DNA of 64,000 nt, from positions 172,164 to 236,163 of the forward strand of contig CAZGCT010000001.1 in the NCBI GenBank assembly GCA_964524325.1, written 5' to 3'. This DNA is from an uncultured Hyphomicrobiales bacterium (GTDB taxonomy: Bacteria > Bacteroidota > Ignavibacteria > Kapaibacteriales > UBA2268). This document shows, one piece after another, positions 35,597 through 53,512 of this stretch. The notes under the pieces were generated by a model. The model saw nothing but the letters and a program-made list of their open reading frames with translations. It searched no databases and had not been told where the DNA came from. Numbering within the stretch: position 1 is the stretch's first letter; every line of letters starts with the position of its first letter. The translations under genes were made by a program, and so were the position numbers.

Positions 35597-36745
35597 CTAA
35601 TAAAAAAGGTAAAAGAAAACAAACCTTGTAGTTATTGAAGGAGCAAAACTTCTTTCTTTGGTTTTTTCATAAGTTTCGATTAAAAGCGAGGGAGTAAGAT
35701 AAATCTTTTCAATTGGTTTATAATTAAGGCAAAAAAGGAATAAATTCCTTTTGTCATTTTGGAAATCTCTAGAAATATTAGGATCAATTTGGTCGAACCT
35801 AAAAACAAAATTTACTTTTTTTGATAAATAAAATATCCCAAACAGGGAAATACCTAACATGTTTCTATTTAAATATTTCTTTTGAAGTGTATCGTAAAAC
35901 GAATTACGCACATAATTGTAAAAGTTTTCAACTCCAACTTTGAAAAGGTCTTTTTGGTGGAATGTAAAGAAAATTGAAACTAAGTCTTCATCCTTACTCA
36001 ATATTTGATTTGCTACAAATTTATCGGATATGGGTTTTTGATATTTATGGTAATAATTAATAAAAGCGTTGATGCTTTCGCTGGGTTTAAAAAAGAAATT
36101 CGAATACAAAGTTTTATGTCTATCTGTTTCGGGAGTATTGCCAGAACCATTTCCAAAAAGGAACCAGTAGTTAACAATTCCTTCTTTGTCTATCTTACCT
36201 TTTAAAGAAATTCCGAAATCTCTTGAGCTCGAAAAACCATATAAATCAATAATTGTTTTTTCAACATGTCGATTTTCCCATGAAAATTCCGAAATGTCGA
36301 ATGTTGGGGTTGGTTGTATTCCAATTGTCAAGTTCGAGCCTTGAAAAATATTTTTCCATTGAAGGTAGGCATCCTTTACAAAAACACCTATTTTTGAATT
36401 ACTTGTTAGGGTGAATTGGTCGGCTTCAAGCCTAAACCTGGATGAAAATTGATCAGAAATTTGGTAATCATATGTAAAGTAAATCCTTCTGAACTCGAAT
36501 CCGTTAAGGTCTTTAGCATCTTTATAATTTACGAATGGGAGTTGTGCGACGCTACTGTCTCGCATAATATTGTAGTAATAATCTCCAAACATATAACCCG
36601 AAAACCGACCTTTCTCAAGTATTTCTTGGGATTGTACTGAGTAAAATGAAAGAAAATTTACTATTAAAAGGATCTTCAAATTAAATAATCTGAATAGCTT
36701 GCCTTGCTTCATTCTAAATATTTTAAAAAACTCAAAATTAATCAA
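35597..36745 (-). CDS. outer-membrane beta-barrel protein (porin-like)
   Basis: A signal peptide and alternating aromatic beta-strand pattern are present. The C-terminal residue is aromatic (Y). Confidence 0.5.
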   Translation of the reverse strand: MINFEFFKIFRMKQGKLFRLFNLKILLIVNFLSFYSVQSQEILEKGRFSGYMFGDYYYNIMRDSSVAQLPFVNYKDAKDLNGFEFRRIYFTYDYQISDQFSSRFRLEADQFTLTSNSKIGVFVKDAYLQWKNIFQGSNLTIGIQPTPTFDISEFSWENRHVEKTIIDLYGFSSSRDFGISLKGKIDKEGIVNYWFLFGNGSGNTPETDRHKTLYSNFFFKPSESINAFINYYHKYQKPISDKFVANQILSKDEDLVSIFFTFHQKDLFKVGVENFYNYVRNSFYDTLQKKYLNRNMLGISLFGIFYLSKKVNFVFRFDQIDPNISRDFQNDKRNLFLFCLNYKPIEKIYLTPSLLIETYEKTKERSFAPSITTRFVFFYLFY

Positions 36746-38193: not shown

Positions 38194-39405
38194 TTACGAA
38201 AGTTTGTATTGATTAATCTTTCGGTACAAGGTTCGCTCGCTTATTCCAAGGGCTTTTGCAGTTCTACGGCGATTTCCTTTAAATTTTCTTAGGGTATATG
38301 AAATAATTTCTTTCTCGATATTGGTTAAATTCAAATTATCTGGTAAAATATTTGGGAAACCATCATTATCGACAATATGATATGTTCCCGGCCTTAGTTC
38401 TGTAATATTCGAATTTACCGAATCCATCTTACTATTCAATTCGTTTAAAGCTTCTTTTACCAGGTCCACATCCTTTTTAATTTCAAGTAAAGTTCTAAAA
38501 ATGATTTCTAAGCCTAGTTGGGTTTCTTTTCCGGAAGGAACATAAAGTAAAGATGTTTCCTTAGGTTGTTCAATTCTTACATGGGGTGGTAGTGCTGGTG
38601 GAAGGTACCTTTTTAAAACCTCAAGGGTTATATACCCAGTTTTTTCAAGTTTTAATATAGTTTCTATGAGATTTTTTAATTCCCTAATATTTCCAGGCCA
38701 TTGCAATCCACGAAGGATATTCAAAGCTTCCAACGATACCCCTTGAAAAGAGATCCCAAGTTGCGAACAAGTTTTTTGGGCAAAAAAATCGACCAGAATT
38801 GGAATATCCTCTGGACGTTCACGTAATGGAGGAAGAATAATATGCAAATTTTTTAGTCTGTAAAACAAGTCTTGTCTGAAAGTCCCTTTGTATATTTCCT
38901 CTTCAAGCTTTTTATTTGTAGCAGCAATCACTCGTACTTCAACCTTCCTGACTTCAGTTGAACCTAGTCGATTGAATTCCCCTGATTCAAGTACACGAAG
39001 TAATTTAACCTGCGTTCCGACGGGCATTTCTCCAATTTCGTCCAAGAAAATTGTTCCGCGATTTGCTACTTCGAAATATCCTTTTCTTTGTTCGTAAGCT
39101 CCGGTAAAGGCACCCTTTTCGTGTCCAAAAAGTTCGGACTCTAGCAATGTTTCAGGTATTGCGCCACAATTAACACTTATGAAAGGAAATTTTCTTCTTT
39201 TGCTAAGTTGATGAATGGCGTTGGCGACTACTTCTTTTCCAGTTCCAGTTTCACCCGTGATTAAAACATTAAGGTCCGTGGGGGCAACTTTAAGAATGGT
39301 ACGGAAGATGTCAAGAATTTTTTCAGATACACCAACAAGTCCATATTTGTTTTCTAGTAATTCAAGAGTGGCTTTATTAATTATTATTTCTTCATTCATT
39401 GGCAT
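38194..39405 (-). CDS. sigma-54-dependent transcriptional activator lacking an N-terminal sensor domain (PspF-like)
   Basis: The AAA+ domain starts at about residue 20 (GETGTGKE). The GAFTGA motif is present. A C-terminal Fis-type HTH reads RTAKALGISERTLYRKI. Confidence 0.85.
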   Translation of the reverse strand: MPMNEEIIINKATLELLENKYGLVGVSEKILDIFRTILKVAPTDLNVLITGETGTGKEVVANAIHQLSKRRKFPFISVNCGAIPETLLESELFGHEKGAFTGAYEQRKGYFEVANRGTIFLDEIGEMPVGTQVKLLRVLESGEFNRLGSTEVRKVEVRVIAATNKKLEEEIYKGTFRQDLFYRLKNLHIILPPLRERPEDIPILVDFFAQKTCSQLGISFQGVSLEALNILRGLQWPGNIRELKNLIETILKLEKTGYITLEVLKRYLPPALPPHVRIEQPKETSLLYVPSGKETQLGLEIIFRTLLEIKKDVDLVKEALNELNSKMDSVNSNITELRPGTYHIVDNDGFPNILPDNLNLTNIEKEIISYTLRKFKGNRRRTAKALGISERTLYRKINQYKLS

Positions 39406-40054
39406 TCTTTCTTAACTTTGTCCATTCATCCCAACCACCGGGATAAATAAAAACATTTTTGTAACCGAGGTGAATTAAATCGTACGAAACTTTGTGGCTT
39501 GCGTCGCAAGAACCTCCTTCGCAATAGACAATAATTACTTTTTGTGGGTCTATTGGCAAAGTTGCTATCTTTTGGAAATACAAGTTTAGGTCCTGCTCGT
39601 AGGCAAAGATATTTATAGCTTTGCCAATATGGGCTTTATTGTACTCATCTGGTGAACGTGCATCAATTAGTATGAGATTTGGAGACTCAAGGTATTTAAT
39701 TAATTGATTGTAGGTAACAATGGGAATTTCATCTGAACGTTTTTGAGGATTGATTTTATCAACTTGCTTTTGTTCTATTTGGGTTGCTTTCTTTGCTTTC
39801 GTTGTATCCTTTAAAGTAAAAGTAGCTGTGTCTAATTTTTTTATATCTTCTTTGCTTGCAGTTTCTTTTGGGGGTACATTCGAAATTGTATCAGAAAGAA
39901 GTTTTTCTAATATTGTGTCCGAAACTATTGCTGGTTTCTTAAATAAAATAATTCCAGACGGGTTTAAATAGTTGTAAATTACAGCAACGAAAGAAGTTAA
40001 GCCTAAAATAAAAAGAGCTTCTCTGGAAATTTGTTTCCAATCTATTTTGCGCAT
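39392..40054 (-). CDS. membrane-anchored rhodanese-domain protein
   Basis: An N-terminal TM helix is followed by a rhodanese fold (LIDARSPDEY). The active-site loop is VYCEGGSCD. The gene overlaps the activator gene by 14 nt. Confidence 0.7.
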   Translation of the reverse strand: MRKIDWKQISREALFILGLTSFVAVIYNYLNPSGIILFKKPAIVSDTILEKLLSDTISNVPPKETASKEDIKKLDTATFTLKDTTKAKKATQIEQKQVDKINPQKRSDEIPIVTYNQLIKYLESPNLILIDARSPDEYNKAHIGKAINIFAYEQDLNLYFQKIATLPIDPQKVIIVYCEGGSCDASHKVSYDLIHLGYKNVFIYPGGWDEWTKLRKNANE

Positions 40055-40534: not shown

Positions 40535-41389
40535 CTAGTAAGATTCTGATTCGTTGGGAAAGTTTTGGTTTCTAACATCTTCAGCATACTTTTTACAAGC
40601 TTCTAAAATTGTTTCGAACAAACTTGCATATCTACGTACAAACCGAGGATTAAAATCTATAGTTAAGCCAACAAGGTCGGTATACACAAGGATTTGCCCA
40701 TCGCAGTGCGGCCCTGCGCCAATACCTATTGTGGGTATTTTAATTGCTTGAGAAATTTTTTTGGACAGTTCTGCGGGTATTTTTTCAAGGACTACGGCAA
40801 AAACACCAGCTTGTTCTAAGTTTACAGCGTCGCGGAAAATTGCTTCCGCTTCTTGTGGATCTTTGCCTCTTGCCCTATAAGAACCAAATTTGTGGATACT
40901 TTGTGGCGTAAGACCAACGTGACCCATCACCGGAATACCACTTTCTGTCATTCTTCTAATTGCTTGTAAAGTAATTTCTGTAGCACCTTCCAATTTAACT
41001 CCTCCACAACCTGTCTCTTTCATAATTCTTCCTGCATTTGTAAATGCTTCGTCCGCAGATACTTGGTAGCTCATAAACGGCATGTCTGCAATAATTAAGG
41101 GTCTTTTTGCTCCTCTTACAACTGCTTTTGTATGGTAGATAATTTCATCCAATGTAACTGGTATAGTTGTTTCTAACCCTTGGACAACATTACCAAGCGA
41201 ATCTCCAACTAAAATTACATCTACACCACTTTCATCTAATATTCTTCCTATTAAAGCATCATAAGCGGTTAGACAAACTATCTTCTGCCCAGAATTTTTC
41301 ATTTCTTGAAGTCTAAAAGTTGTGACTTTGCGTGGGTCCACGCTTGTGCTTCCAATATAATCCATTTTTCCCTTTTCGATTAAAAGCAA
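40535..41389 (-). CDS. panB: 3-methyl-2-oxobutanoate hydroxymethyltransferase
   Basis: The motifs KIVCLTAYDALIGR, LVGDSLGNVVQG and GIGAGP are present. Confidence 0.85.
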   Translation of the reverse strand: MLLIEKGKMDYIGSTSVDPRKVTTFRLQEMKNSGQKIVCLTAYDALIGRILDESGVDVILVGDSLGNVVQGLETTIPVTLDEIIYHTKAVVRGAKRPLIIADMPFMSYQVSADEAFTNAGRIMKETGCGGVKLEGATEITLQAIRRMTESGIPVMGHVGLTPQSIHKFGSYRARGKDPQEAEAIFRDAVNLEQAGVFAVVLEKIPAELSKKISQAIKIPTIGIGAGPHCDGQILVYTDLVGLTIDFNPRFVRRYASLFETILEACKKYAEDVRNQNFPNESESY

Positions 41390-41678
41390 AATTAAAAAAT
41401 ATGTAACTGGTTAAATAAAATTTTTTTCCGTAATGTATTATTGGATTAAGAAATTTGCTTTGATTTATGTCATTACGGCAGAACCGAGCTACTTGATTTT
41501 ATTCATTTTTAATTCGTAGAAATAATGAACACCGAAACTAGATTTTTTTTAATTTTACTGTTTGGTAATATTTAAATATTAGATTGATACGATTATAAAA
41601 AAGGTACATTAATTTTATATTTATTATAAAACAATAGGGTGCAAATTTTAATAAAAAATATTGAAGAGGTAAATTGGT

Positions 41679-41691
41679 GCTGCTTAGCAGC
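41679..41691. promoter_or_regulatory. 13-bp perfect palindrome GCTGCTTAGCAGC in the divergent panB / octaheme-operon intergenic region
   Basis: An exact palindrome about 250 nt upstream of the octaheme cytochrome start. It is a candidate dimeric regulator binding site. Confidence 0.3.
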
Positions 41692-41942
41692 TGATAATTA
41701 TTGTAGCTTAGTTTTTCAAGTTTTAGAATTTTACTGTTTGTATTGCTATGAGAACCCTTCAAAGTAGTAACAATTTAATTTTTTGCACTAATTTTCTAAG
41801 CAAAACTACAAAAGTTTATCAGCCATGATACTTTGTTCTTGGTGTTATTATTTTATGAAAATAGTGGATTCACTTCAGAAATTGCCTCTTAATTTCCTTT
41901 TAAAATTCGATAATTTCTTATTTATGTTAAATAAAAGAAAGC

Positions 41943-43544
41943 TTGAAAGATATGAGATGGATTGTAATTTCTCTTGCCATTTTAAGCGGCGTCGCTGTTG
42001 TTGTCCTCAACCTTATTAGTCCTAAAGAAATATTACCTACAAAGTTAATGCAATTGAGGGAAAAGTATTCCTCTAAAAAGTTCGAAGCTGGGTACAAACG
42101 TGTCGACCACTCAAAATTTGCTATTCTCCAACAAAATTTCGAAACACCACAAGAGGTTACCAAAGCCTGCATTTCGTGCCACAATAATACTGCAAAAGAT
42201 ATTATGAATGGTAACCATTGGAATTGGGAAAGAGTTGATTACATTAAAGGCAAAGGAATTGTGTATCTTGGGAAAAGAAATGCAATCAATAATTATTGCT
42301 TGAGTGTTGTAAATAGCGAAAAGCTTTGTGCAAAATGCCACATTGGATTCGGAATTGACCATACTGGTCGTGGTTTTACCGATTCAACGAATATTGATTG
42401 CCTAATATGCCATGATAATACTGGATCATATGCAAAAGCTTCAGGGGAAGCTGGTGCACCGTCTCCAAATGTCAATTTCAATTTTGTTGCTCAAAATGTA
42501 GGCAAACCACAGAATGTAAATTGTGGTTCATGTCATTTCTTTGGTGGGGGTGGGAACAACGTAAAGCACGGCGACTTAGAAGTGTCATTGTTGGAGGCTA
42601 CAAATGAAGTTGATGTACATATGGGTATCGATGGATTTAATTTGCAATGTATTGATTGCCATACTACTCATAGGCATAATATATCGGGGAAATTGTATTC
42701 ATTGTCTTCAATGAATACAAATAGAGTTGAATGTGAACAATGCCATACCGCTACACCTCACACAAAAGGGATTTTAAACGAGCATACATTGAAAGTAGCT
42801 TGCCAGACTTGTCACATACCTAAATATGCAACAATGAAACCAACTAAATTATCTTGGGATTGGAGCGAAGCTGGAAAACTTGTAGATGGTAAACCGATAA
42901 AACTTAAAGATTCCCTTGGTAATGAAATTTATACATCCCAGAAAGGTAGGTTTACTTGGGGCAACAATGTACGACCCGATTACATTTGGTTCAACGGAAC
43001 TAGTAGCCATTACCTTGCTGGAGACAAGATTCAAGATACTTCGAAACCATTGGTGCTCAATCAATTATTTGGTACATTCGACGACCCAAGTTCAAAAATT
43101 TATCCAGTGAAAATTCATTATGGCAAGCAGCCATTCGACCCGATTAACAAAATACTAATTCAGCCAAAACTTTATGGTGAGAAGTCCGGCGAAGGTGCCT
43201 TTTGGGTTGATTTCGATTGGAAAACTTCTTCAAAAATTGGTATGCAAACTCTCGATTTACCTTTCAGTGGTGAAATTTCTTTCATTCCAACTATTATGTA
43301 TTGGCCCTTAAATCATTTGGTTGTTAAAAAAGAAAAATCTGTGCAGTGTATAGAATGCCATACCAAAAACAGCTCTCGCCTTGCTGGACTTCAAGGTCTT
43401 TACTTGCCCGGGAGGGATAATAGCGATTTGGTTGACTACGGTGGTTTAATATTAATAATTTTAGTGATTCTTTTGGTTGTGATCCACTCTTCATTTAGGA
43501 TTTATTTTTATTTTAAAAATAAAAAAGAGGTTCAAAATGGGTAG
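41943..43544 (+). CDS. membrane-anchored octaheme c-type cytochrome (OTR/HAO-like superfamily)
   Basis: There are eight CxxCH motifs: CISCH, CAKCH, CLICH, CGSCH, CIDCH, CEQCH, CQTCH and CIECH. A hydrophobic segment sits at each end. No CxxCK motif is present. Confidence 0.8.
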   Translation: MKDMRWIVISLAILSGVAVVVLNLISPKEILPTKLMQLREKYSSKKFEAGYKRVDHSKFAILQQNFETPQEVTKACISCHNNTAKDIMNGNHWNWERVDYIKGKGIVYLGKRNAINNYCLSVVNSEKLCAKCHIGFGIDHTGRGFTDSTNIDCLICHDNTGSYAKASGEAGAPSPNVNFNFVAQNVGKPQNVNCGSCHFFGGGGNNVKHGDLEVSLLEATNEVDVHMGIDGFNLQCIDCHTTHRHNISGKLYSLSSMNTNRVECEQCHTATPHTKGILNEHTLKVACQTCHIPKYATMKPTKLSWDWSEAGKLVDGKPIKLKDSLGNEIYTSQKGRFTWGNNVRPDYIWFNGTSSHYLAGDKIQDTSKPLVLNQLFGTFDDPSSKIYPVKIHYGKQPFDPINKILIQPKLYGEKSGEGAFWVDFDWKTSSKIGMQTLDLPFSGEISFIPTIMYWPLNHLVVKKEKSVQCIECHTKNSSRLAGLQGLYLPGRDNSDLVDYGGLILIILVILLVVIHSSFRIYFYFKNKKEVQNG

Positions 43545-44211
43545 GAAAGTTTATATCTATTCTGCATACGAGAGATTTTGGCATTGGACTCAAGCAATTT
43601 TGATTTTCTTTTTAGCCTTCACTGGCTTCGAGGTACATGGTGTTTATATTTTCTTTGGGTACGAAAATGCTGTAATTTACCATAGAATTGCTGCCTATCT
43701 TTACATCATATTGGTTATTTTCACTATTTTTTGGCATTTTGCTACAGGACTATGGAAACAGTATATTCCTACGCGAAAATTCATTAAGGAACAAATTGAG
43801 TTTTATATTACCGGTATTTTTCGTAATGCTCCTCATCCTATTAAAAAGACTGTTTTAAGCAAACTTAATCCATTACAAAAGCTTACTTACTTTGCATTAA
43901 AAGTTTTGGTAATTCCAATAGTGGGTACATCTGGTTTATTCTATCTTTTTTATCGGTACCAAACCGACTTAGGGGTACAAGCAATTAATATTGCTTCATT
44001 GAAATACATTGCAATAATTCACACCGCCGGTGCAATTTTGCTGGTTGCTTTTATTATTGTGCATATTTATTTAACTACAACTGGAACTACTATTTTTTCA
44101 AATCTAAATGCTATGTTGACTGGGTACGAAGAAATAGAAACAAAGGAAGAATCGGATAAAAATTTCGTCCAGAAATCAGAGTTGCCGGTTCAAAATTTAG
44201 AAGAAAATTAA
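43537..44211 (+). CDS. cytochrome b561/HydC/FdnI-family membrane b-type cytochrome subunit
   Basis: RFWHWTQAILIFFLAFTGFEVHG and four TM helices carrying His ligands are present. The gene overlaps the cytochrome c gene by 8 nt. Confidence 0.7.
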   Translation: MGRKVYIYSAYERFWHWTQAILIFFLAFTGFEVHGVYIFFGYENAVIYHRIAAYLYIILVIFTIFWHFATGLWKQYIPTRKFIKEQIEFYITGIFRNAPHPIKKTVLSKLNPLQKLTYFALKVLVIPIVGTSGLFYLFYRYQTDLGVQAINIASLKYIAIIHTAGAILLVAFIIVHIYLTTTGTTIFSNLNAMLTGYEEIETKEESDKNFVQKSELPVQNLEEN

Positions 44212-44232
44212 TTTAAGTCATAAATTTGGAGA

Positions 44233-44754
44233 GTGAATATGGAAACACAAAAGTATATGAATCCTTACTTGGCGGGCTTGTTGTTAGGTTTGTTGTTACT
44301 TTTTACTTTTTTTATCACTGGTCGTGGTTTGGGTGCAAGTGGTGCATTCAAAAGCCTTACAGTTGCTACAGTCCAAAGCATTGCCCCTGGACATTCAAAT
44401 AATTCTAAATTCTACAAGGAATATTCCGAAGAGCATTCTGGAAATCCCTTGATGAACTGGCTTGTCTTTGAAATTTCGGGTGTCATTATTGGGGCTTTTC
44501 TTTCTGGACTTGCATCCAATAGATTGAAACTTCAATTGGAAAAAGGACCGAGGTTGTCTTCGAACACAAGAATAATCGCAGCATTTCTTGGTGGGGTACT
44601 TTGGGGAGTTGGTTCACAACTTGGTCGAGGTTGCACAAGCGGTGCAGCTTTGAGCGGCCTTGCAATTATGTCCACTGGGGGTATCCTTACCATGATATCA
44701 ATTTTCGCTGGGGCCTATTTGTTTGCATTTTTCTTTAGAAAGTTTTGGATTTAA
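44233..44754 (+). CDS. YeeE/YedE-family sulfur-compound transporter, half-size subunit A
   Basis: The protein is 173 aa with 4 TM helices. The conserved loop GRGCTSGAALSGLA is present. Confidence 0.7.
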   Translation: MNMETQKYMNPYLAGLLLGLLLLFTFFITGRGLGASGAFKSLTVATVQSIAPGHSNNSKFYKEYSEEHSGNPLMNWLVFEISGVIIGAFLSGLASNRLKLQLEKGPRLSSNTRIIAAFLGGVLWGVGSQLGRGCTSGAALSGLAIMSTGGILTMISIFAGAYLFAFFFRKFWI

Positions 44755-44766
44755 TTGGGAGGATTT

Positions 44767-45996
44767 ATGGGACCACTTGTGCCAGATGTAATTAGTCAAG
44801 GGTTAAATTTTGTTATTGCATTTTTTATTGGAATTTTCTTTGGTGCGATATTGGAACAGGCAGGTTTTTCTTCTTCGCGAAAACTTGTTGGTTTGTTCTA
44901 CGGTTATGATTTTACGGTTTTAAGAGTATTCTTTACTGCTGGTGCCGTTGCAATGGCTGGAATTTTTCTTTTCCAAACATTTGGAATCATCGATATTACT
45001 GCCTTTTATATAAATCCAACTTACTTCTGGTCTGCAATAGTTGGTGGTTTAATTATGGGACTGGGATTTGTTGTTGGTGGATATTGCCCAGGAACAAGTG
45101 TTTGTGCTGCTTCCATAGGTAAGCTCGACGCAATGGTTTTCGTTTTTGGCATTATTGTTGGCGTTTTTATTTTTGCCGAAGGGTACAGTATCTTTGAACC
45201 ATTATATAAAAGTTCGTTTCTGGGTTATCCAAGAATTTTCCAAACCTTAAATATTTCTCAGCAGTTTTTTGCTTTTCTTTTGGTTATAATTGCTTTATCT
45301 GCTTTTTATTTTACAAATATTATTGAAAACAAAGTAAATAGTAAAAAGCTAAGTGCCATCAAAACTACACCTTATTTTGCAATAGTGTTAGTGATTGGAG
45401 TTGTTATTGCTTTTTCTTCCTTTACTTTTTACGATAAAAAGGAGATGATATTAAGTTTAACGGAAAATCCAGAATATGTTGTCTCTGCAACTGGTATTTC
45501 TTGCTCCGATACTAATCCAAATCCAAATTCAATTTGCCCTGACGAATTTGCTCTTATCTTAATTAGAATCCTTGAGTTTAAAAACATTAAAATTTATGAT
45601 TTCAGACCCACAGAAGATAGACAAAAACTACCATTTCCAAAATCTATACCCTCAACAATTGATGATTTGTTTTCTAAAGAATTCAATAGACTACTTCGGG
45701 TGAGGGGCACCGAAAATATTTTTATTGCTAATGATGAATTTACAGAAAGAAAGATGGTCTTTATTGCTAAAAGTTTGGGCTACAAAAAAGTTAAGTTTTT
45801 GAAAGGTGGGGTGAACTACTTTGTCGATGAAATTTTGAATTACAAAGAAAACCCCGATCCTAGAACCCAACAAGAAATTAACCGGAACAAATTTAGGCTT
45901 TATGCTAAACAAGTATTACCGGAAATCTTTGCAAAGTCTAAGACAAATGAAGTTTCCCAAACAAAGAAGAAAAAACCTACTATGGGAGGGTGTTAG
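44767..45996 (+). CDS. YeeE/YedE-family transporter half-size subunit B fused to a rhodanese-like domain lacking the active-site Cys
   Basis: The N-terminal TM region carries GGYCPGTSVCAAS. The C-terminus has a rhodanese-like fold (KIYDFRPTEDRQ...FLKGGVNYF) with no Cys at the catalytic loop position. The start is taken at the ATG preceded by GGGAGG. The ORF track begins at an upstream TTG at 44755. Confidence 0.65.
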   Translation: MGPLVPDVISQGLNFVIAFFIGIFFGAILEQAGFSSSRKLVGLFYGYDFTVLRVFFTAGAVAMAGIFLFQTFGIIDITAFYINPTYFWSAIVGGLIMGLGFVVGGYCPGTSVCAASIGKLDAMVFVFGIIVGVFIFAEGYSIFEPLYKSSFLGYPRIFQTLNISQQFFAFLLVIIALSAFYFTNIIENKVNSKKLSAIKTTPYFAIVLVIGVVIAFSSFTFYDKKEMILSLTENPEYVVSATGISCSDTNPNPNSICPDEFALILIRILEFKNIKIYDFRPTEDRQKLPFPKSIPSTIDDLFSKEFNRLLRVRGTENIFIANDEFTERKMVFIAKSLGYKKVKFLKGGVNYFVDEILNYKENPDPRTQQEINRNKFRLYAKQVLPEIFAKSKTNEVSQTKKKKPTMGGC

Positions 45997-46080
45997 TATC
46001 TCTTTTTTGAATTTTTAATTAGGATTAGATTTTGTTTAGTTGCATGGGTTATTTGTTTAGATTAACTTTTTAAAACTAAT

Positions 46081-47376
46081 TTACTTTATCATGTTTCCAT
46101 AATGATCGAACATGTATTTCACAACGGCTTCGGCTTCGTTTGGTTTTAGACCTTGGTTTGGCATAGGCGGGTAATTTGGGTCTACTTTAACAGGGTTTAG
46201 AATGTACCTTACCATATCTTCTTGGCGATCCTCATATTTTTTTAATACTTCTTTGTGAGGAGGGCCAACCAATTTGGTATCGAATTGATGACAAGCAACA
46301 CATTTTGCTTTGTAAATCTCTTCCCCATTAACTTCTTTGACTGTACTGCGACCAGCACTTGCTAAAAGCTTCTCATGATATGCAATATGATCTTTTGAAA
46401 TTTTGAACTCTTGTATTTTGTTCGAAATTGCGAGGGAGGTTGCATCCGAACCAAAGAACAATAGGAAAGAGAATATTGCAGAGAAAAAGGCATTTTTGGC
46501 AAAAGTAATGCTTTTATTTTTTAATGAAAAATAACTAAATAGTAAGCAAAGTAAAAAAACAAGCAAAGAAGCTACAAGTAAAATGTAATTTTGTAGGGTT
46601 ACAAGACTTTTGGGTAAATTGACATAAATGACAAGAGAAATAATTGGAAGAATATTGCCCCAGATGATAACATTTGAAAGAGCTTTTTTAACCACACCGT
46701 TTTCTTCAGGAAAAAATTCGCCTATTTCGGAAACTTTATCCACTGTAAATGTTTTGAAAATGTAGGCTAAGGAGGAAAGGACAAAAGCAATTCCAATGAA
46801 TTGGATAATTCTGAAAATAATATTCAAATCCAAAAAATCTGCAATGTTGAAGCCAGATAAAACGAATGAATTTTGAATTGCAATTAATGAAATACCATTA
46901 GTTAAGTATATAGTAAAAAAGATTGCAATTATTGAAAGTGTTTGAAGTAATAAAATAGTCGGATTAATGTTTATTAAACTATGATTCTTTTCAAAAAAAA
47001 ATAGTATGGTCTTTAGGAAAACTACAAATAAGATGAAAAGTAGAGTGGAAGAAAAAAGTACTACAAAAAAGTCATTGGGTGCCTTTTGCATAAATTGAAG
47101 TAAGGAATAATATATCGAAAGCAAAGGAACAAACCCAAGCCCGATTAACGCTACATAGCCTCTTGCGATATACTCGATAAAGTTCCTTGCAATAGTTAAA
47201 TAGTATTCGTTTTTTGTTTTATTGGTTTTAACATAGAAATATAGGGAATAAATTACACCACCAAACAAAAAAGCAAAATAAAGGTTGAAGGTTGAAAAAC
47301 CTAAATAGAAAAATATCTCCAAAAGTTTTGAAACCTGTACTGAATGTGGAATTGCAAAAACGTTCAACGCTTCCAT
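46081..47376 (-). CDS. polytopic membrane protein with C-terminal class-I cytochrome c domain
   Basis: About 12 TM helices are followed by KAKCVACHQFD ... PPMP, a CxxCH motif plus a Met-ligand region. It is the last gene of the cox/ctaB run. Confidence 0.55.
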   Translation of the reverse strand: MEALNVFAIPHSVQVSKLLEIFFYLGFSTFNLYFAFLFGGVIYSLYFYVKTNKTKNEYYLTIARNFIEYIARGYVALIGLGFVPLLSIYYSLLQFMQKAPNDFFVVLFSSTLLFILFVVFLKTILFFFEKNHSLININPTILLLQTLSIIAIFFTIYLTNGISLIAIQNSFVLSGFNIADFLDLNIIFRIIQFIGIAFVLSSLAYIFKTFTVDKVSEIGEFFPEENGVVKKALSNVIIWGNILPIISLVIYVNLPKSLVTLQNYILLVASLLVFLLCLLFSYFSLKNKSITFAKNAFFSAIFSFLLFFGSDATSLAISNKIQEFKISKDHIAYHEKLLASAGRSTVKEVNGEEIYKAKCVACHQFDTKLVGPPHKEVLKKYEDRQEDMVRYILNPVKVDPNYPPMPNQGLKPNEAEAVVKYMFDHYGNMIK

Positions 47377-47386
47377 TTATTCTCTC

Positions 47387-48256
47387 CTAAAATTTGAGTA
47401 TTTTCTGAACTGAAATGACAAGTGAGAAAATTAAAACAAAGATGTTCAAATTTATAAATGCTATTTTATAAAAGTTTTGTGGTTGGATAACTTTAACCAT
47501 ACGGTAAATTCTTCCTAAAAATAAAACACCTAGCAAAAAAACAACGATAAACGAATAAAGATTAAAACTTTCGATAAAAGCTAATATTATCAATGCAATT
47601 ATCACAAGTGCAAAAATCCAAAAAAAAGATATTCTTGCAATTTGTAAGGAAGAAAAAATATCTGTGAGCACTGGAAAGCCAGCATTTCGATACTCTTTCT
47701 CATAAACAATTAAAAGTAACCAAAAATGTGGAATTTGCCATACAAAAAAGAAAAGGGAAATTGAAAAGATTTGAGGATGCTCAATTGAACCGCCCGCAAA
47801 TGTCCAACCTATCAAAGGAGGAATTGCTCCAATCACAGCTCCAGGGATTGCTGCAAAAGGGGTTATTCTCTTCAAAGGTGTATAAATTACATTATAAAAA
47901 ATTAAGGCAAGAAGCCCAAAAAAGAAAGGGTGTGACTTTTCACTTGAGAGAAAAAGTACAGCTAAGCCTATTGCAATTAGTGCTCCAGATATAATAGTTC
48001 CAGATGCTGGAGAAATTACTCCTTGGGGGATTGGACGAGACATTGTTCTTGGCATTCGACTGTCCAATTGCCATTCTTGCACTTGATTGAGTGCACCGGA
48101 GCCTCCAGCCAGCAAAAAAACACCAAGCCAAAGGAAAAACAAATCGAAATTAATAGAATTGTTTGCAAGTATATAACCAAGAATTGCTGATATCGATACA
48201 AATACGACAATTCGAAATTTAATCAATATTAGAAAATTCTTTAAGGTAAATTTCAT
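47387..48256 (-). CDS. ctaB: protoheme IX farnesyltransferase (heme O synthase)
   Basis: A UbiA-family fold carries the motif NQVQEWQLDSRMPRTMSRPIP. Confidence 0.8.
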   Translation of the reverse strand: MKFTLKNFLILIKFRIVVFVSISAILGYILANNSINFDLFFLWLGVFLLAGGSGALNQVQEWQLDSRMPRTMSRPIPQGVISPASGTIISGALIAIGLAVLFLSSEKSHPFFFGLLALIFYNVIYTPLKRITPFAAIPGAVIGAIPPLIGWTFAGGSIEHPQIFSISLFFFVWQIPHFWLLLIVYEKEYRNAGFPVLTDIFSSLQIARISFFWIFALVIIALIILAFIESFNLYSFIVVFLLGVLFLGRIYRMVKVIQPQNFYKIAFINLNIFVLIFSLVISVQKILKF

Positions 48257-49224
48257 TGTTTATTTTTTGCAAAGTTGATGAACAACAAATCAACAATGTA
48301 CTCTAATTCATCTTCTTTTAAGTTGTTTAGTTGTCTTGGCATTTTAATTTTTTCATAACCACTAACAATATGTAAGTCGGGGTTGATTATTGATTCCCGA
48401 ATGTAGTTCTTGTCTATAGCAACAGAAGTGTCTTTCCCATTGAAGATGACTTTTGCAAAACCCCGAGATAATTCAGAAAACGATGGACCTATGCTTTTTC
48501 TGTTGTCAATACTATGACATTGGACACAACCTTTTGCAAATAAGATTGCCTGGCTACCAGACAAGTAATCTTTATAGCCACCAGTATGAGATGCTACATA
48601 TTTTCGAAGATAATTATCGTCGACTTTACCCTCTAGCCATTGCGAAAATTCATGCTCCGGTACGACATAGACTTTTGTGTACATTAATGAATGATTCAAA
48701 CCGCAATATTCAGCACATGCTATGTCGAATGAACCAATTTCTTTCGGATGTACAACCATATAGTTTTCTCTACCAGGAATAGCGTCCTCTTTAATTCTAA
48801 AAGCAGGTATGTAAAAAGAATGGTTTACGTCTTGCGATACAATGTTGAACTTAACTGGCCTTCCAACCGGTATAAACAAAGTGTCTGTTACTTTGCCATT
48901 ATCGTAAAAAAAATTCCAAGCCCACATTTTTGCTTCGACCTTAACGTTCAGTGCGTTGGGTGGAACAATTCGCGATTCCTTGAAAACTCCATAACTGTAG
49001 AAAAACATTGTTAAGACAAGTATTACAGGAACAACAATCCAAATAATTTCAACAACCTTATTCCCCTCAATTTGCGAGGCGACTGGATTTCTCTTCCGAT
49101 TGTATTTGATTACAAAATATATCATAGCAAAAGTAACAATCAAAAGTAACGCAACTGCTATTCCTATTATATACAACATCACATAATCGACTGATTTAGC
49201 ATATTCTGTTGCCCATTGAAACAT
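48253..49224 (-). CDS. coxB: cytochrome c oxidase subunit II with fused cytochrome c domain (caa3-type)
   Basis: Two N-terminal TM helices are followed by the CuA motif CAEYCGLNHSLM. A C-terminal CVQCH heme site is present. Confidence 0.85.
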   Translation of the reverse strand: MFQWATEYAKSVDYVMLYIIGIAVALLLIVTFAMIYFVIKYNRKRNPVASQIEGNKVVEIIWIVVPVILVLTMFFYSYGVFKESRIVPPNALNVKVEAKMWAWNFFYDNGKVTDTLFIPVGRPVKFNIVSQDVNHSFYIPAFRIKEDAIPGRENYMVVHPKEIGSFDIACAEYCGLNHSLMYTKVYVVPEHEFSQWLEGKVDDNYLRKYVASHTGGYKDYLSGSQAILFAKGCVQCHSIDNRKSIGPSFSELSRGFAKVIFNGKDTSVAIDKNYIRESIINPDLHIVSGYEKIKMPRQLNNLKEDELEYIVDLLFINFAKNKQ

Positions 49225-49233
49225 TTCAACCTC

Positions 49234-49527
49234 CTACCTAAAGAAAATATCAGTTGCCGTAAGAATAAAAATTGATGCAAGCGTTACCAGTGCAACCAAA
49301 AGAAAGAACTTGAAAATTGCATCGTCGAATTTAATATGCATAAAATAGTTTATAACAAGAGTTGACTTGACAGCTGCAATAAATAAAGCTATAAACAAAG
49401 CAATCCGACCAAAATCTACACCAGCAATGGTTACTGTAAGGACAGTAAGTGAAACAAGGCTTAACCAAACAAGTACATAAGTTCCATAGGGTATTAAATG
49501 TGAGTTGTGCTCTTTTTCCATTGTCAC
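49234..49527 (-). CDS. coxD: cytochrome c oxidase small subunit IV (CoxD-like)
   Basis: A 97-aa protein with 3 TM helices, positioned between coxC and coxB. Confidence 0.5.
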   Translation of the reverse strand: MTMEKEHNSHLIPYGTYVLVWLSLVSLTVLTVTIAGVDFGRIALFIALFIAAVKSTLVINYFMHIKFDDAIFKFFLLVALVTLASIFILTATDIFFR

Positions 49528-49530
49528 CTC

Positions 49531-50211
49531 TTAGTGAATAAGATAAAACAAAGGGAACAAAAAAATCCAAATTAGATCGACAAGGTGCCAATATAATCCA
49601 GAGTTTTCGAGTTTGATATAATCCTCTTTGTTGATTTTATTTCTAGATAGGAAAACAAGCATAAATAGTAATATTATTGCACCAATAATTACGTGTAAAG
49701 CGTGGAGCCCAGTCATAGAATAATACATTCCGTAGAAAATAATCTCACCATTTGGCTTTGACAGTAACTCTGGGTTGTTCGGTGAAATTCCATGCTGAAA
49801 CTTTGCGCCCCACTCAAAATACTTAATGACAAGGAAGGCTAAAGCAAAAGCAATAGTCGAAATTAAGAAAAAAATTGAAAGAGTCTTTTTAGCTCTTTGG
49901 ATTGCTGCTATCGAAAGAGCCATAGTTAAACTACTTGTTAAAAGAATAATAGTATTTACCGTACCTAGAACAACATTCAGTTCTTGCCCTGCTATTATAA
50001 AGTCCTTTGTATATTGCAATCGATAAGACATATAAAGCAGAAATAATCCCCCAAATAAAAGCAATTCAGTAAATAAAAACAACCACATACCGATTTTGGC
50101 ACCAATAGCATCTTTGTGTTGATGTGGGTCAGAGATATGGTGGACACTCTTCTTAATTTGATTTTCGGAAAGTGCATTTGTTGTTTCAATTCTTTCCATC
50201 ATTTTTCTCAT
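49531..50211 (-). CDS. coxC: cytochrome c oxidase subunit III
   Basis: A roughly 200-aa, 5-TM protein adjacent to coxA with the subunit III-like hydrophobic pattern. Confidence 0.7.
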   Translation of the reverse strand: MRKMMERIETTNALSENQIKKSVHHISDPHQHKDAIGAKIGMWLFLFTELLLFGGLFLLYMSYRLQYTKDFIIAGQELNVVLGTVNTIILLTSSLTMALSIAAIQRAKKTLSIFFLISTIAFALAFLVIKYFEWGAKFQHGISPNNPELLSKPNGEIIFYGMYYSMTGLHALHVIIGAIILLFMLVFLSRNKINKEDYIKLENSGLYWHLVDLIWIFLFPLFYLIH

Positions 50212-51826
50212 TTATTTTTGAAAAATCGTAAGGTCCGTGATTAACTACTGGTATTGTTTTAAAATTTTCTGTCGGTGGGGGCGAGGGTATGGTCCATTCT
50301 AAAGTAACTCCTCCCCAAGGATTTGAATCGGATCTTTTTCCTTTAAAAAGTGAATAAATTAGATTGCCAAACATCATAGCAAGCCCAGCTATGAGTATCC
50401 ATGAACCAATTGTTGAAATTATGTGCAAGGTTTCGTATTCAGGAAGATAACTCCAATAACGGCGAGGCATTCCTAAGTAACCAAGAATAAACATTGTGAA
50501 ATATAGCATGTTGAAACCAATAAAGATAAATGGGGTAGACCAAATTGCTACTTTTTCATTATACATTTTTCCAAACATTTTTGGGAACCAGTAATGTAGA
50601 GCTGCAAATAAGATAATTGCTGTTCCTCCAAACATTACATAATGGAAATGTGCGACAACGAAGTAGGTGTCCGTTACGTGAATGTCTGTTGCTAATGAAC
50701 CTAAAACAAGTCCGGTTAGACCCCCAATAGAAAAAAGAAAAATGAACATCATTACGTAAATTAAAGGTGCACGCAGTTCTATAGAACCTTTGTAAAGAGT
50801 TGCTACCCAATTGAAAACTTTAACTCCGCTTGGAACAGCAACAAGAAATGTAAGCAAAGAAAATATCATTCTTGCGGTATCGCTGATACCAGAAGTGAAC
50901 ATATGATGAGCCCAAACAAAGTAACCAATTAGGGCAATCGAGAGCGAAGAGAAAGCTATAACCCTATATCCAAAAATAGTTCTACGAGCAAAAGTAGGAA
51001 TAATTTCAGATACGACTCCCATAGCAGGCAATATCATTATGTAAACTGCTGGATGTGAATAAATCCAGAAAAGATGCTGAAACAATAATGGGTCACCACC
51101 GAGTGCGGGGTCGAAAATACCAATTTGTAAAATCCTTTCAACTACAACAAGAAGAATGGTTATTCCTACTACTGGGGTGGCTACTACTTGAATCCAAGCA
51201 GTTGCATACAAAGCCCAGACAAACAAAGGCATCCTGAAAAATGTCATTCCAGGTGCTCGTAGTCGGTGTACCGTAGTAACAAAATTCAATCCAGTAAGAA
51301 TTGATGAGAAACCAAGAATGAAAGCCCCAAGCAATGGAAGAATAACATTTGTAGTTGTTCGAATGCTATACGGAACATAAAATGTCCATCCAGTATCGAT
51401 TGGGCCGCCTTGAAGAAATAAAGATATTATTGCAAAAAGTCCACCTAGGATGTATAGATACCAGGATAAAAGGTTAAGCCTCGGAAATGCAACATCCCGC
51501 GCTCCAATTTGTATTGGGAGGAAAAAGTTGCCAAAAATTGCAGGTATTCCTGGTATTATAAATAGAAAAATCATTATTACCCCGTGGAGGGTGAAAAAAG
51601 CATTGTATGTCTGTGCATCAATAATAGTTTGGTCTGGGGTAAGCATTTCGAGTTTCATCAGAAAGCCTAAAAAAACACCAACCCAGAAAAATGTGATCAT
51701 TGCTACAAGATAAAGTATACCAATTCTTTTGTGGTCTGTGCTCGAAAGCCACCCCAAAATTCCCTTCTTTGTTTCGTGTTGTGAAAGATAATTTTCAAGT
51801 GTTTCTGCAATAGTGCTATTAGCCAT
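50186..51826 (-). CDS. coxA: cytochrome c oxidase subunit I
   Basis: The heme-copper oxidase motifs WAHHMF, GHPEVY-like region and conserved His ligands are present. The protein is 546 aa. Confidence 0.9.
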   Translation of the reverse strand: MANSTIAETLENYLSQHETKKGILGWLSSTDHKRIGILYLVAMITFFWVGVFLGFLMKLEMLTPDQTIIDAQTYNAFFTLHGVIMIFLFIIPGIPAIFGNFFLPIQIGARDVAFPRLNLLSWYLYILGGLFAIISLFLQGGPIDTGWTFYVPYSIRTTTNVILPLLGAFILGFSSILTGLNFVTTVHRLRAPGMTFFRMPLFVWALYATAWIQVVATPVVGITILLVVVERILQIGIFDPALGGDPLLFQHLFWIYSHPAVYIMILPAMGVVSEIIPTFARRTIFGYRVIAFSSLSIALIGYFVWAHHMFTSGISDTARMIFSLLTFLVAVPSGVKVFNWVATLYKGSIELRAPLIYVMMFIFLFSIGGLTGLVLGSLATDIHVTDTYFVVAHFHYVMFGGTAIILFAALHYWFPKMFGKMYNEKVAIWSTPFIFIGFNMLYFTMFILGYLGMPRRYWSYLPEYETLHIISTIGSWILIAGLAMMFGNLIYSLFKGKRSDSNPWGGVTLEWTIPSPPPTENFKTIPVVNHGPYDFSKINEKNDGKN

Positions 51827-52595
51827 TTCTCACCTCTGAATTCTCTTTTTTCTTTTTAGAAATTAATATTACAAAAAATACAGCTAAGCCAAGTAGAATT
51901 AAAGTTCCAAAAACGCGTGTGAAATTGAACACATATGTTCTTCCGGTTGGGTCGTAGGAGTAACAAAATTTTAAAATGCGGTTAACTGTGGGCAATGGTA
52001 TTCCTTTGTCAGCTTCTAATAAAGCCATTTTAAAGTCGAACGGGTTAAACTCCGTTCCGAATAAATATCTTATTATTTTACCATCTGGGGAAATCGAATA
52101 CAATGCTGCACCGTGAATAAATTCTCCTTTGCCATCTGGCTTAAAGTAGAAACCTACAGATTTAGTTACTTTCATAATCGAAATACTATCGCCAACAAGA
52201 AATACCCAGCCATTTTTATCGATTTTCCGCTTAAGGCCTTTTATGTGGTTTTCTTTCCACTTTTTTGCCTTATCGTATGTTTCTGTATGATCAAAACTTA
52301 TAGTAACAAGTTGGTAGTCTTTACCGGGTATTAGATCTGTTTTATCAACTACCTCTGAGATACCAGTTAAAAGTGGACTACAAATTCCAGGGCAGTGATA
52401 ATAAACAAACATTAGTATTGTGGGTTTATTGATCAAGTCCCAAAGTTTAATTTGCTTTCCCTCTTCATTGGTAAATGAAAGATCCAGTGGGATTTTGTTG
52501 CCTAATTTTTCTACAATACCTACTTCGGGTTCTTTAATGCTTTTCAAAACCGAAGCAACAAGAAAAAATGCAAGAATAAGTAATATCCTTTTCAT
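51819..52595 (-). CDS. sco: SCO1/SenC copper chaperone
   Basis: A thioredoxin-like fold with the CPGIC motif and a downstream His is present. Confidence 0.8.
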   Translation of the reverse strand: MKRILLILAFFLVASVLKSIKEPEVGIVEKLGNKIPLDLSFTNEEGKQIKLWDLINKPTILMFVYYHCPGICSPLLTGISEVVDKTDLIPGKDYQLVTISFDHTETYDKAKKWKENHIKGLKRKIDKNGWVFLVGDSISIMKVTKSVGFYFKPDGKGEFIHGAALYSISPDGKIIRYLFGTEFNPFDFKMALLEADKGIPLPTVNRILKFCYSYDPTGRTYVFNFTRVFGTLILLGLAVFFVILISKKKKENSEVRNG

Positions 52596-52606
52596 AACTC
52601 TCTATT

Positions 52607-53512
52607 TCAATTTAGTGTTAGAATTTTATCAATGAATTGTTTTTTCTCTTGTTCACTTGAATAAATAAATTTAGGTGAAATACCATTAAGCGGAAATGTA
52701 GAAATAATTAAATCTTCTATGTTCTTGGAGTCTTTTCTGGCATTTATCAGAAAGTGGGTAAATTTGTCTAAATCCTTAATGAATTTTTTTAAATTTTCAT
52801 CATTGAGAGCCAAAGATATTGAATTTGTTTTTCCAAGAAATTGTTCATTTTCTTTTAAAATTTTGTCTATTGCTTTTGTTATTGGTATTGTTGGGGGAAG
52901 TTCATAAGTTTGTGTTACTTTGTAGGTTGTTTCCAAATCGGCAATATCCTTTTCTGAAATTTCAACAGAATCGGTATAAAACTTATTAATTTTGTGAAAC
53001 AAAGCGATTTTTTCCTTTGTAGAAAGATAGCTATAAGAGACCATGCTTGAACCTATTATTCCTTCTTGCAAGGTCTTATAAACTTGTGTGATTGTTCTTC
53101 CATTTTTCCAACCTTCTTTAGATTTGAAATTCCTTGGAGAGGGATTTAACCCCATACTTGCTAATCCATTTCCTTCCCCAGTTTCGCCGTGGCAGGAAGA
53201 GCAAGTAGTCCGATAAATTTCCTCTCCCCTCTTTATCATATCAATTGGAGGTTTGATTATTTCCTCTACTTTTATACCTTCTATTTTTCTTCCAAGCGAA
53301 AGCTCGACCTCTTTGAATTGTTTGGTTGTATCAATTTCGTCGTGGGGGGTGGTGTTCCTATAAAAATGGTCAATTTGGTCAAGGTAAGCTAAACTTATGC
53401 CAAAAATCGAAAGGAAGATAATTATAAATGAATATCCAACCCACCTTTTAGGGTCCTTAAAAACCTCTTTAAAGTTAATTTCATCATAAAAATAATCAAA
53501 TAATTTTTTCAT
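52607..53512 (-). CDS. membrane-anchored monoheme cytochrome c
   Basis: An N-terminal TM helix and a single CSSCH motif with Met downstream are present. The gene lies between actF and sco. Confidence 0.7.
   Translation of the reverse strand: MKKLFDYFYDEINFKEVFKDPKRWVGYSFIIIFLSIFGISLAYLDQIDHFYRNTTPHDEIDTTKQFKEVELSLGRKIEGIKVEEIIKPPIDMIKRGEEIYRTTCSSCHGETGEGNGLASMGLNPSPRNFKSKEGWKNGRTITQVYKTLQEGIIGSSMVSYSYLSTKEKIALFHKINKFYTDSVEISEKDIADLETTYKVTQTYELPPTIPITKAIDKILKENEQFLGKTNSISLALNDENLKKFIKDLDKFTHFLINARKDSKNIEDLIISTFPLNGISPKFIYSSEQEKKQFIDKILTLN

Follow-up and report, generated by a model that had tools for sequence, protein, structure and literature searches.

A split YeeE-type channel pair with a Gly-Gly-Cys-tipped, rhodanese-like extension as a candidate sulfur hand-over module of periplasmic reductases

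Introduction

Why a sulfur channel of the YeeE/YedE family should be encoded by two half-size genes, and what a rhodanese-like domain without its catalytic cysteine should be doing at the end of the second one, are the questions raised by two adjacent open reading frames (ORF A and ORF B) in a 64,000-nucleotide (nt) stretch of DNA from an uncultured Hyphomicrobiales bacterium (GenBank assembly GCA_964524325.1, contig CAZGCT010000001.1, positions 172,164 to 236,163; from here on the window, in whose coordinates positions are given). A first annotation made from the sequence (the original prediction) took the pair for a genuine heterodimeric transporter, its second half being fused to a catalytically dead rhodanese. 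The reading favoured here, which we hold with moderate confidence, is that the split YeeE channel and a periplasmic arm tipped by Gly-Gly-Cys (GGC) act together as a sulfur hand-over accessory of the reductase encoded directly upstream. In the following, the reality of the split, the nature of the appended domain, the side of the membrane on which it lies and the genes that accompany it are considered in turn, and the other explanations that the data allow are weighed where the relevant evidence appears.

Two genes for one channel fold

ORF A (171 amino acids, counting from the ATG at 44239) and ORF B (409 amino acids, from the ATG at 44767 to the TAG at 45994-45996) both score above the gathering threshold of 27 bits of the Pfam family Sulf_transp (PF04143), with 82.6 bits (E 5e-23, profile positions 174-310) and 56.9 bits (E 3.3e-15, profile positions 12-181), respectively, which bears out the two half-size YeeE/YedE genes of the original prediction; its coordinates, a Cys-containing loop motif in each ORF, the TAA at 44752, the 12-nt spacer and the GGGAGG-ATG start of ORF B are all found on direct reading of the sequence. 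The motif of ORF A, GRGCTSGAALSG, holds Cys132 (codon 44632-44634), and that of ORF B, GGYCPGTSVCAAS, holds Cys107 (45085-45087) and Cys113 (45103-45105). Cys132 is the sole invariant cysteine of ORF A (83/83 sequences), and Cys107, Cys113 and Cys409 are the only invariant ones of ORF B in a full-length alignment of the window's protein with 120 homologues (121 sequences). Among 545 stretches from species-representative genomes that encode relatives of ORF B, the best 80 all align across its full length.

An alignment to the solved YeeE (StYeeE), a check that the original prediction had proposed, shows the loop cysteines to correspond. ORF A aligns to StYeeE residues 235-326 (6LEO/8J4C), with Cys132, which sits in the re-entrant loop GRGCTSG, opposite Cys293 on the periplasmic side, and the alignment profile of ORF B aligns to residues 6-92 (6LEO), with Cys107 opposite Cys91 on the cytoplasmic side; an equivalent of StYeeE Cys22 is absent from the A/B pair. 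By these features of their sequences ORF A and ORF B are assigned to the YeeE/YedE family and, within it, to the class of split channels of the PmpAB/YedE1E2 type.

The arrangement in the window could, by itself, raise the suspicion that a single YeeE/YedE gene has been broken at 44752-44754, be it through a nonsense mutation or through an error in sequencing: the two ORFs share one reading frame at an offset of 528 nt, are separated only by one in-frame TAA and 12 nt, and are, in the order A then B, collinear with YedE/FdhT models (NF033796 positions 5-153 for A and 215-382 for B). However, the stop codon between A and B is kept in 82/82 related loci that have both genes, across spacers of 8-148 nt; B shares the frame of A in 59 of them and is shifted by +1 in 14 and by +2 in 9, i.e. 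out of the A frame in 23. ORF B owns a Shine-Dalgarno-like sequence and an ATG, and every homologue in the 121-sequence alignment starts with MGPL. Furthermore, a read-through product could not fold as YeeE: since the C-terminus of A is predicted to be cytoplasmic and the N-terminus of B periplasmic, with no helix to link them, a direct A-B fusion would be topologically impossible. On the comparative data of the 82 loci, explanations by frameshift, nonsense mutation or pseudogene formation are rejected, and we give a broken gene next to no credence. Circular permutation, considered at one stage as proof of two genes, was dropped; gene order proves nothing, because A-B is permuted with respect to YeeE/TsuA and yet collinear with the YedE/FdhT models.

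The in-frame arrangement, found in 59 of the 82 loci, exceeds the one-third expected by chance, 12- or 15-nt spacers being commonest, and probably reflects common ancestry of the short spacer bearing the Shine-Dalgarno sequence. As read from these sequences, then, the two-gene arrangement is genuine and not a sequencing artefact. This part of the original prediction stands on varied spacers and frames; the accompanying idea of a heterodimer of half-size YeeE proteins had already been published, such split pairs being known from PmpAB and YedE1E2, whose action as heterodimers was proposed and has partly been demonstrated (PMC11582611, PMC10812762).

A rhodanese-like domain and its terminal cysteine

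The AlphaFold2 model of ORF B is of good quality across residues ~230-390 (predicted local distance difference test, pLDDT, 75-91), and the top matches of this part in a Foldseek search of the PDB are almost all rhodaneses (probability 1.00, TM-score on target 0.6-0.73), so that, on the model, the C-terminal domain is a rhodanese fold. The sequence match of the window's protein to PF00581 is sub-threshold (13.8 bits, cut-off 22.2), and homologues reach 50-57 bits on the same model. As originally predicted, the domain lacks the canonical rhodanese cysteine: the catalytic position is an invariant Ala321 (codon 45727-45729), in a loop that is two residues shorter than that of the window's real rhodanese (NIFI--ANDEFT vs IIVYCEGGSCD) and acidic (A-x-D-E-x-T-E). 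With no nucleophilic cysteine to open the active-site loop, the domain is, as far as its sequence tells, not a catalytic rhodanese. In the conserved helix that follows the fold, F376 and P385 are invariant and N374, R377 and A380 nearly so.

The real rhodanese just mentioned (39392-40054, minus strand; 220 amino acids with an N-terminal transmembrane (TM) helix; PF00581 E 4.4e-22, loop YCEGGSCD) adjoins a gene for a sigma-54 activator (38194-39405, minus strand), ~2 kb upstream of the gene cluster to which ORF A and ORF B belong, and may represent a second, catalytically competent sulfurtransferase in the neighbourhood.

What the loop has lost is set against what the end of the chain keeps. 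All 120 listed homologues of ORF B end in ...K/R-x-x-GGC-COOH; the net charge of residues 366-409 is +6.8, and the pLDDT of the model drops from 58 to 38 along the tail, indicating disorder. In a deep search of ORF B residues 225-409 against 1.84 billion cluster representatives, which gave 72 clusters of which 71 could be retrieved, 54/71 representatives end in GGC followed by 0-3 residues and 5/71 in GC, the remainder being mostly truncated; some family members end in GGCG plus one residue. The description of the domain as catalytically dead is therefore to be limited to the canonical site, given that the flexible basic tail ends in an invariant cysteine. The original prediction had named a reactive cysteine elsewhere in the domain as what would tell against it, and Cys409, present in 121/121 aligned sequences as well as in the GGC of the deep-search representatives, plausibly is such a cysteine.

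As alternative roles of the GGC end, a GG terminus in the manner of ThiS/MoaD and a sorting signal in the manner of GlyGly-CTERM or MYXO-CTERM were weighed. The former does not fit as the fold is wrong, nor does the latter as no TM helix follows.

Membrane topology and the side of the domain

In the StYeeE crystal structure, the N-terminal half starts outside and has two buried loops that dip into the membrane from the cytoplasmic side; with the topology reversed by helix H7, the loops of the C-terminal half come in from the periplasmic side (PMC7449682). ORF A comprises four TM helices with both termini predicted inside, the net charge being +3.5 in the TM2-TM3 loop and +2 at the C-terminus (83 sequences). 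ORF B comprises six predicted TM helices and a 185-residue extramembrane part. Its lysine plus arginine (K+R) counts in the 121 sequences run 0 / 3.0 / 0 / 1.0 / 1.8 / 3.5 loop by loop: the N-terminus and loop 2 have none, loop LA has 3.0, loop LB 1.0 and the stretch between TM5 and TM6 3.5, and the segment after TM6 has a net charge of -0.9. From this pattern we infer six helices with both the N- and the C-terminus of ORF B outside, and the rhodanese-like domain would therefore lie outside as well, TM6 returning the chain across the membrane and being the counterpart of the helix that anchors the stand-alone, GGC-ending relatives of the domain (RHD-GGC proteins, see below) at their N-terminus. 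The accessory cysteines of the domain occur strictly in pairs (Cys246/Cys257 in 25/25 sequences and the pair at 264/271 in 73/73), the former pair being present in the window's protein, and this strict pairing suggests structural disulfides. Taking together the topology, the paired cysteines, the stand-alone relatives and the operon partners, we consider a periplasmic location of the rhodanese-like domain quite likely.

The original prediction had instead supposed that the dead domain replaces TusA/YeeD, binding the substrate or gating the channel; as a model, this would put the domain in the cytoplasm, at the channel exit. The absence of the canonical cysteine fits this view, as does the requirement of characterised YeeE for its cytoplasmic partner YeeD (PMC11582611, PMC13047784), and the basic tail would suit the positive-inside rule, the charges around the anchors of the stand-alone proteins not being decisive. 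However, an inside N-terminus of ORF B would then be needed, which contradicts both the K+R distribution (0 at the N-terminus, 3.5 between TM5 and TM6) and the N-out half of StYeeE; the suggested disulfides speak against it, and the operon partners are all periplasmic, being c-type cytochromes or PhsA/Psr molybdoenzymes in operons that sometimes also contain tatC. The invariant terminal cysteine, in turn, argues against an inert domain. A cytoplasmic substitute for TusA is, on balance, improbable, and the evidence places the domain on the periplasmic face, where it would be close to the channel entry and to a periplasmic reductase.

The operon and its counterpart at other reductases

A point missed by the original prediction is the invariant context upstream. 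ORF A and ORF B are the final two of four tightly spaced genes on one strand, the first of which encodes an octaheme c-type cytochrome of the tetrathionate reductase (Otr) family and the second a membrane cytochrome b (table 1). The Otr product scores 558 bits against TIGR04315 (cut-off 375) and matches Shewanella OTR (1SP3) over residues 61-479 with E 1.1e-120; the cytochrome b scores 82.8 bits against PF01292, and its best NCBIfam match, at E 7.9e-27 and below the cut-off, is the thiosulfate reductase cytochrome b subunit. Otr, cytochrome b, A and B follow one another in all 83 close loci as far as their contigs reach, as they do at four distant fused homologues whose C-terminal domains are 24-35% identical. 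Over the 89 loci of the fused type that were examined, 80 species-representative genomes included, Otr is the first of the four conserved genes in 84, contig reach permitting. An Otr and cytochrome b561 pair of an Ignavibacteriae metagenome-assembled genome has been described as a candidate terminal reductase, the genes that follow it going unmentioned (PMC7509429), and the Otr family is credited with the reduction of tetrathionate and possibly of nitrite (PMC7509429, PMC11237559).

Table 1. Features of the otr-cytochrome b-A-B cluster in window coordinates
Feature	Position	Strand	Remarks
Octaheme c-type cytochrome, tetrathionate-reductase (Otr) family	41943..43544	+	eight CXXCH; N-terminal signal or anchor
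Membrane cytochrome b (b561/PhsC-like), presumed quinol-side subunit	43537..44211	+	overlaps otr stop by 8 nt
ORF A, half-size YeeE/YedE subunit	44239..44754	+	ATG 44239 or GTG 44233; TAA 44752-44754
Intergenic spacer	44755..44766	+	12 nt; Shine-Dalgarno-like GGGAGG 44757-44762, four bases 5' of the ATG of B
ORF B residues 1-190, second half-size YeeE subunit plus fifth TM helix (= StYeeE H7), predicted N-out	44767..45336	+	
ORF B TM6, residues 204-222	45376..45432	+	hydrophobic window; model helix 202-220
ORF B rhodanese-fold domain, residues ~243-365	45493..45861	+	AlphaFold2 model, Foldseek, loop comparison
ORF B conserved helix after the rhodanese fold, residues 368-390, motif N-x-F-R-x-x-A-(x)4-P	45868..45936	+	pLDDT 85-90
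ORF B flexible basic tail, residues 391-409 (...TKKKKPTMGGC)	45937..45996	+	Gly407-Gly408-Cys409 at 45985-45993, then TAG

The same module is found, unfused, in a second type of operon, in which the order is PhsA-like molybdoenzyme, PsrB, PsrC (NrfD), A, B-half, RHD#1 and RHD#2, sometimes followed by TatC. The B-half stops here after TM5 in a K-rich tail, and the next gene encodes a stand-alone RHD-GGC protein of ~205 amino acids, made up of an MKK start, a single hydrophobic helix, a rhodanese domain and a GGC end. Because these loci hold both genes separately, ORF B of the window is best seen as a fusion of the B-half and RHD-GGC genes, with TM6 as the former anchor. In 80 metagenome loci of this Psr type, counting only those whose contig extends far enough, the B-half is present in 58/59, A in 44/45, PsrC in 35/35 and PsrA in 20/20. 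The GGC end is found in 78/78 RHD#1 and 41/42 RHD#2 proteins, and a cysteine in the canonical loop in only 2/78 and 3/42, respectively (5/120 stand-alone domains). At least 498 stretches encode relatives of the stand-alone RHD-GGC domain. Judged by gene content, the A/B/RHD-GGC module thus goes with two quinol-linked sulfur reductases of the periplasm that are unrelated to each other, Otr-cytochrome b and PhsA/PsrABC.

Some further features of these clusters may be recorded. The Otr of the window ends in a C-terminal hydrophobic helix, LILIILVILLVVIHSSFRIYFYF, followed by KNKK (43400-43544), beyond the region aligned with 1SP3, which stops at residue 479; in related loci the tblastn coverage mostly extends to this helix region, and the protein may be membrane-tethered at both ends. 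A gene for a MarR- or MerR-type regulator precedes some related otr clusters (4724-5164 in locus L001, 3722-4216 in L085); in the window there is none before otr, which follows a divergent panB (40535-41389) after a 550-nt gap. In one distant fused-type locus (L093, 2454-3617), a single case without conservation in other loci, a class-V aminotransferase gene (cysteine desulfurase-like) lies directly 3' of B. Tandem TM-anchored RHD-GGC pairs are seen in the Psr-type loci L088 (8245-8877) and L091 (8645-9268), the second copy having canonical-loop cysteines in L088 (YYSDHCGACS) and none in L091. A scan of 41300-46200 found promoter-like sites to be no more numerous than in shuffled controls and terminator-like sites to be marginally more so (7 vs 3.3 ± 2.0 in the controls), and gave no clear operon boundary.

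Proposed role and alternatives

The working model that we favour can be outlined as follows. A and B would form an antiparallel heterodimeric sulfur channel of the YeeE fold and of the PmpAB/YedE1E2 type, to which A would contribute two re-entrant loops from the periplasm, with Cys132, and B two from the cytoplasm, with Cys107. B would then run, via two more helices, into a periplasmic rhodanese-like scaffold bearing the ~19-residue, basic, GGC-tipped tail, and the pair as a whole would be an accessory module of the quinol-linked periplasmic reductase directly upstream (Otr and cytochrome b). The thiol of Cys409 would work as a swinging arm like that of SoxY or Sud, covalently capturing electrophilic sulfur in the form of a persulfide, a polysulfide or an S-thiosulfonate derived from tetrathionate, and would carry it among the solution, the active site of the reductase and the channel mouth; the final, inward passage of sulfur or thiosulfate through the channel would be via Cys132 and then Cys107. 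Formation of the adduct on Cys409, the species transported and the direction of transport are proposed here by inference, and are to be read as such.

Several observations weigh against this model. Whereas SoxY has a neutral GGCGG arm, the one proposed here is strongly basic and could rather bind lipid head-groups, anions or an acidic surface. The membrane part of ORF B is of low confidence in the AlphaFold2 monomer model (pLDDT 43-67), and the charge around the single TM helix of the stand-alone relatives, judged by eye, is not decisive as to sidedness. Neither the window cluster nor the related loci that were inspected encode a cytoplasmic acceptor resembling TusA, DsrE or YeeD. Nitrite and hydroxylamine, too, are reduced in vitro by members of the Otr family (PMC7509429, PMC11237559). 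The fusion of B with the rhodanese-like domain could be a trivial read-through between adjacent genes, mechanistically meaningless. Finally, in two loci (L150 and L159) PsrC is directly followed by RHD#1 and RHD#2, without A and B; the RHD-GGC carrier can, from these, apparently exist without the channel, and the arm may serve the reductase rather than the channel.

In an alternative reading, the RHD-GGC arm would serve as carrier to the reductase alone, i.e. as a Sud-like or SoxY-like presenter of substrate to Otr or PsrABC, the A/B channel working independently (e.g. importing the thiosulfate or sulfite product) and the fusion to B providing a mere membrane anchor. Besides L150 and L159, which carry PsrABC with both RHD copies, it can point to the ease of the fusion, for which the loss of one stop codon suffices since the end of the B-half and the start of the next gene are both cytoplasmic; to the presence of SoxY beside otr as a precedent (PMC11237559); and to PmpAB/YedE1E2 pairs that function elsewhere without such a domain (PMC11582611, PMC10812762). 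However, A and B accompany the RHD-GGC genes in nearly all Psr-type and in all Otr-type loci, their co-occurrence across two unrelated reductases argues for a unit of three parts, and the fusion persists down to 24% identity in the C-terminal domain. We regard a carrier confined to the reductase as unlikely.

A transmembrane thiol-redox relay has also to be considered, in which the loop cysteines of A and B would pass reducing equivalents outward in the manner of CcdA/DsbD, with no sulfur transport, keeping the periplasmic arm cysteine or the reductase in the reduced state. The position of the cysteines in pseudo-symmetric re-entrant loops would be compatible with it, as would the Cys22-Cys91 disulfide in the StYeeE crystal (PMC7449682) and the existence of selenocysteine variants of the YeeE loop (PMC13188914), and the stand-alone RHD bears a weak likeness to TsoB, the rhodanese/DsbD fusion-like protein of NCBIfam, in the N-terminal part of the latter (E 4.5e-8, far below cut-off). 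Yet that match covers the rhodanese part only, no thioredoxin-like donor is encoded in the cluster, and the characterised members of the family transport thiosulfate or zero-valent sulfur (PMC7449682, PMC10812762), which makes a relay, in either of its uses, very improbable.

Comparison with known systems

The closest counterparts of the channel itself are PmpA/PmpB of Serratia sp. ATCC 39006, adjacent genes that each encode one half of the YeeE fold with a conserved loop cysteine and for which, on re-analysis, a heterodimer of YeeE halves has been proposed (PMC11582611), and the adjacent half-size pair YedE1/YedE2 of Cupriavidus pinatubonensis and Sinorhizobium meliloti, in which the import of zero-valent sulfur needs both halves and both conserved loop cysteines (PMC10812762). 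These proteins are of ~130-140 amino acids, with four TM helices and no extra domain, compared with 171 for A and 409 for B, and their genes adjoin those of persulfide dioxygenase or ArsR-type proteins rather than those of a respiratory reductase. Unlike them, B adds the H7-like helix, a sixth helix, the rhodanese-like domain (predicted periplasmic) and the GGC tail; against DUF6691, the family of the PmpB side, it scores 16 bits, below the cut-off of 27.

With YeeE/TsuA and YeeD/TsuB (Spirochaeta thermophila, E. coli) the pair shares membership of PF04143, the aligned loop cysteines, a Cys-lined pathway and a Cys-bearing partner. TsuA, however, is one chain of nine TM helices and ~330-350 amino acids, with three conserved cysteines and its halves joined by H7, whereas here the halves are split and Cys22 has no counterpart; and the partner of TsuA is a small, cytoplasmic, TusA-like protein, whereas the Cys-bearing appendage is here predicted to be periplasmic and the cluster holds no TusA-like gene. 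The TsuA equivalog models give 13-48 bits for A and B against cut-offs of 400-645. With neither a single chain nor a TusA-like gene, the A/B pair is not a TsuA-TsuB system.

SoxY, the partner of SoxZ in SoxYZ, is a soluble periplasmic protein whose sole functional cysteine lies in a C-terminal GGCGG swinging arm. The Gly-Gly-Cys at the extreme C-terminus of a flexible peptide in B is similar, and the resemblance is possibly functional. A divergent soxY and a soxZ adjoin otr in lucinid symbionts (PMC11237559). B is, by contrast, not a member of the SoxY family, which has another fold, a SoxZ partner, an arm that is not polybasic and no membrane part; no soxZ-like gene is present in the window cluster. 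Sud of Wolinella succinogenes and PspE of E. coli are periplasmic single-domain rhodaneses that use the canonical loop cysteine. The likeness lies in a periplasmic rhodanese fold tied to sulfur-compound respiration or thiosulfate handling, and PspE is a weak NCBIfam match; rhodanese genes, moreover, commonly adjoin psrABC (e.g. in Caldithrix). Sud and PspE keep the loop cysteine, however, whereas the B family is without it, has a loop shorter by two residues, conserves a terminal cysteine instead and is membrane-tethered. By analogy, therefore, the domain of B may work like SoxY or Sud while being a member of neither family.

The upstream Otr is a close homologue of that of Shewanella oneidensis (1SP3), from which it differs by the extra C-terminal hydrophobic helix. 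The best PDB sequence match of the C-terminal domain of B, a weak one (E 0.026), is the Cys-less Alr3790 of Nostoc (3K9R, 2KL3), which shares with it a GDE-type loop in place of the catalytic cysteine; Alr3790 is small, with no membrane part, and no C-terminal GGC is evident in its aligned part. In the open-access literature searched, no description was found of a module made of otr or psr genes, YeeE halves and a rhodanese with a C-terminal cysteine.

Other features of the window

Directly downstream, on the opposite strand, lies a block of aerobic-respiration genes (46081-63810, minus strand), comprising those for a 431-residue polytopic membrane protein with a C-terminal cytochrome c domain, a heme O synthase (UbiA family), COX2, COX3, COX1, SCO1/SenC and a cytochrome c, together with Alternative Complex III (ACIII) genes for an ActD-cytochrome c fusion, an NrfD-like subunit and a 1035-residue Mo-pterin-like/iron-sulfur subunit. 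Three ORFs of 382-453 amino acids (53589-54935, minus strand; 33015-34376, plus strand; 35597-36745, minus strand) gave no Pfam match at E <= 1e-4, the first of these lying within the ACIII/oxidase block. A scan of the whole 64-kb window found no tRNA genes and no Rfam families at gathering score.

Implications

The genes of this module are currently annotated only as 'YeeE/YedE family protein' or 'rhodanese-related sulfurtransferase'. The case of ORF B calls for caution in this respect, in that a rhodanese-like domain called inactive for lack of its loop cysteine may carry a working thiol elsewhere.

A wider proposal, put forward tentatively as a possibility that we rate below even, is that the RHD-GGC proteins constitute a new class of periplasmic, membrane-tethered sulfur carriers, in which the working thiol of a degenerate rhodanese scaffold would have shifted to a polybasic swinging arm at the C-terminus, and which, together with the split channel, would form a portable adaptor for two unrelated reductases. 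If this were true, the physiological substrate of the present Otr clade would be a protein-bound sulfur adduct and not free tetrathionate or nitrite, YeeE-type channels would use a Cys-to-Cys relay starting at a tethered periplasmic donor, and the respiratory reduction of sulfur compounds would be directly coupled to sulfur import.

At a more general level, the invariant linkage of Otr to a sulfur channel and a Cys-tipped carrier (89 loci) argues for a sulfur substrate of the enzyme in this clade. A tethered periplasmic thiol near the entry-side cysteine also offers a specific hypothesis of how substrate may be delivered from outside to channels of the YeeE family, and the module may serve quite generally as an accessory to periplasmic sulfur respiration among the Ignavibacteriota and related lineages.

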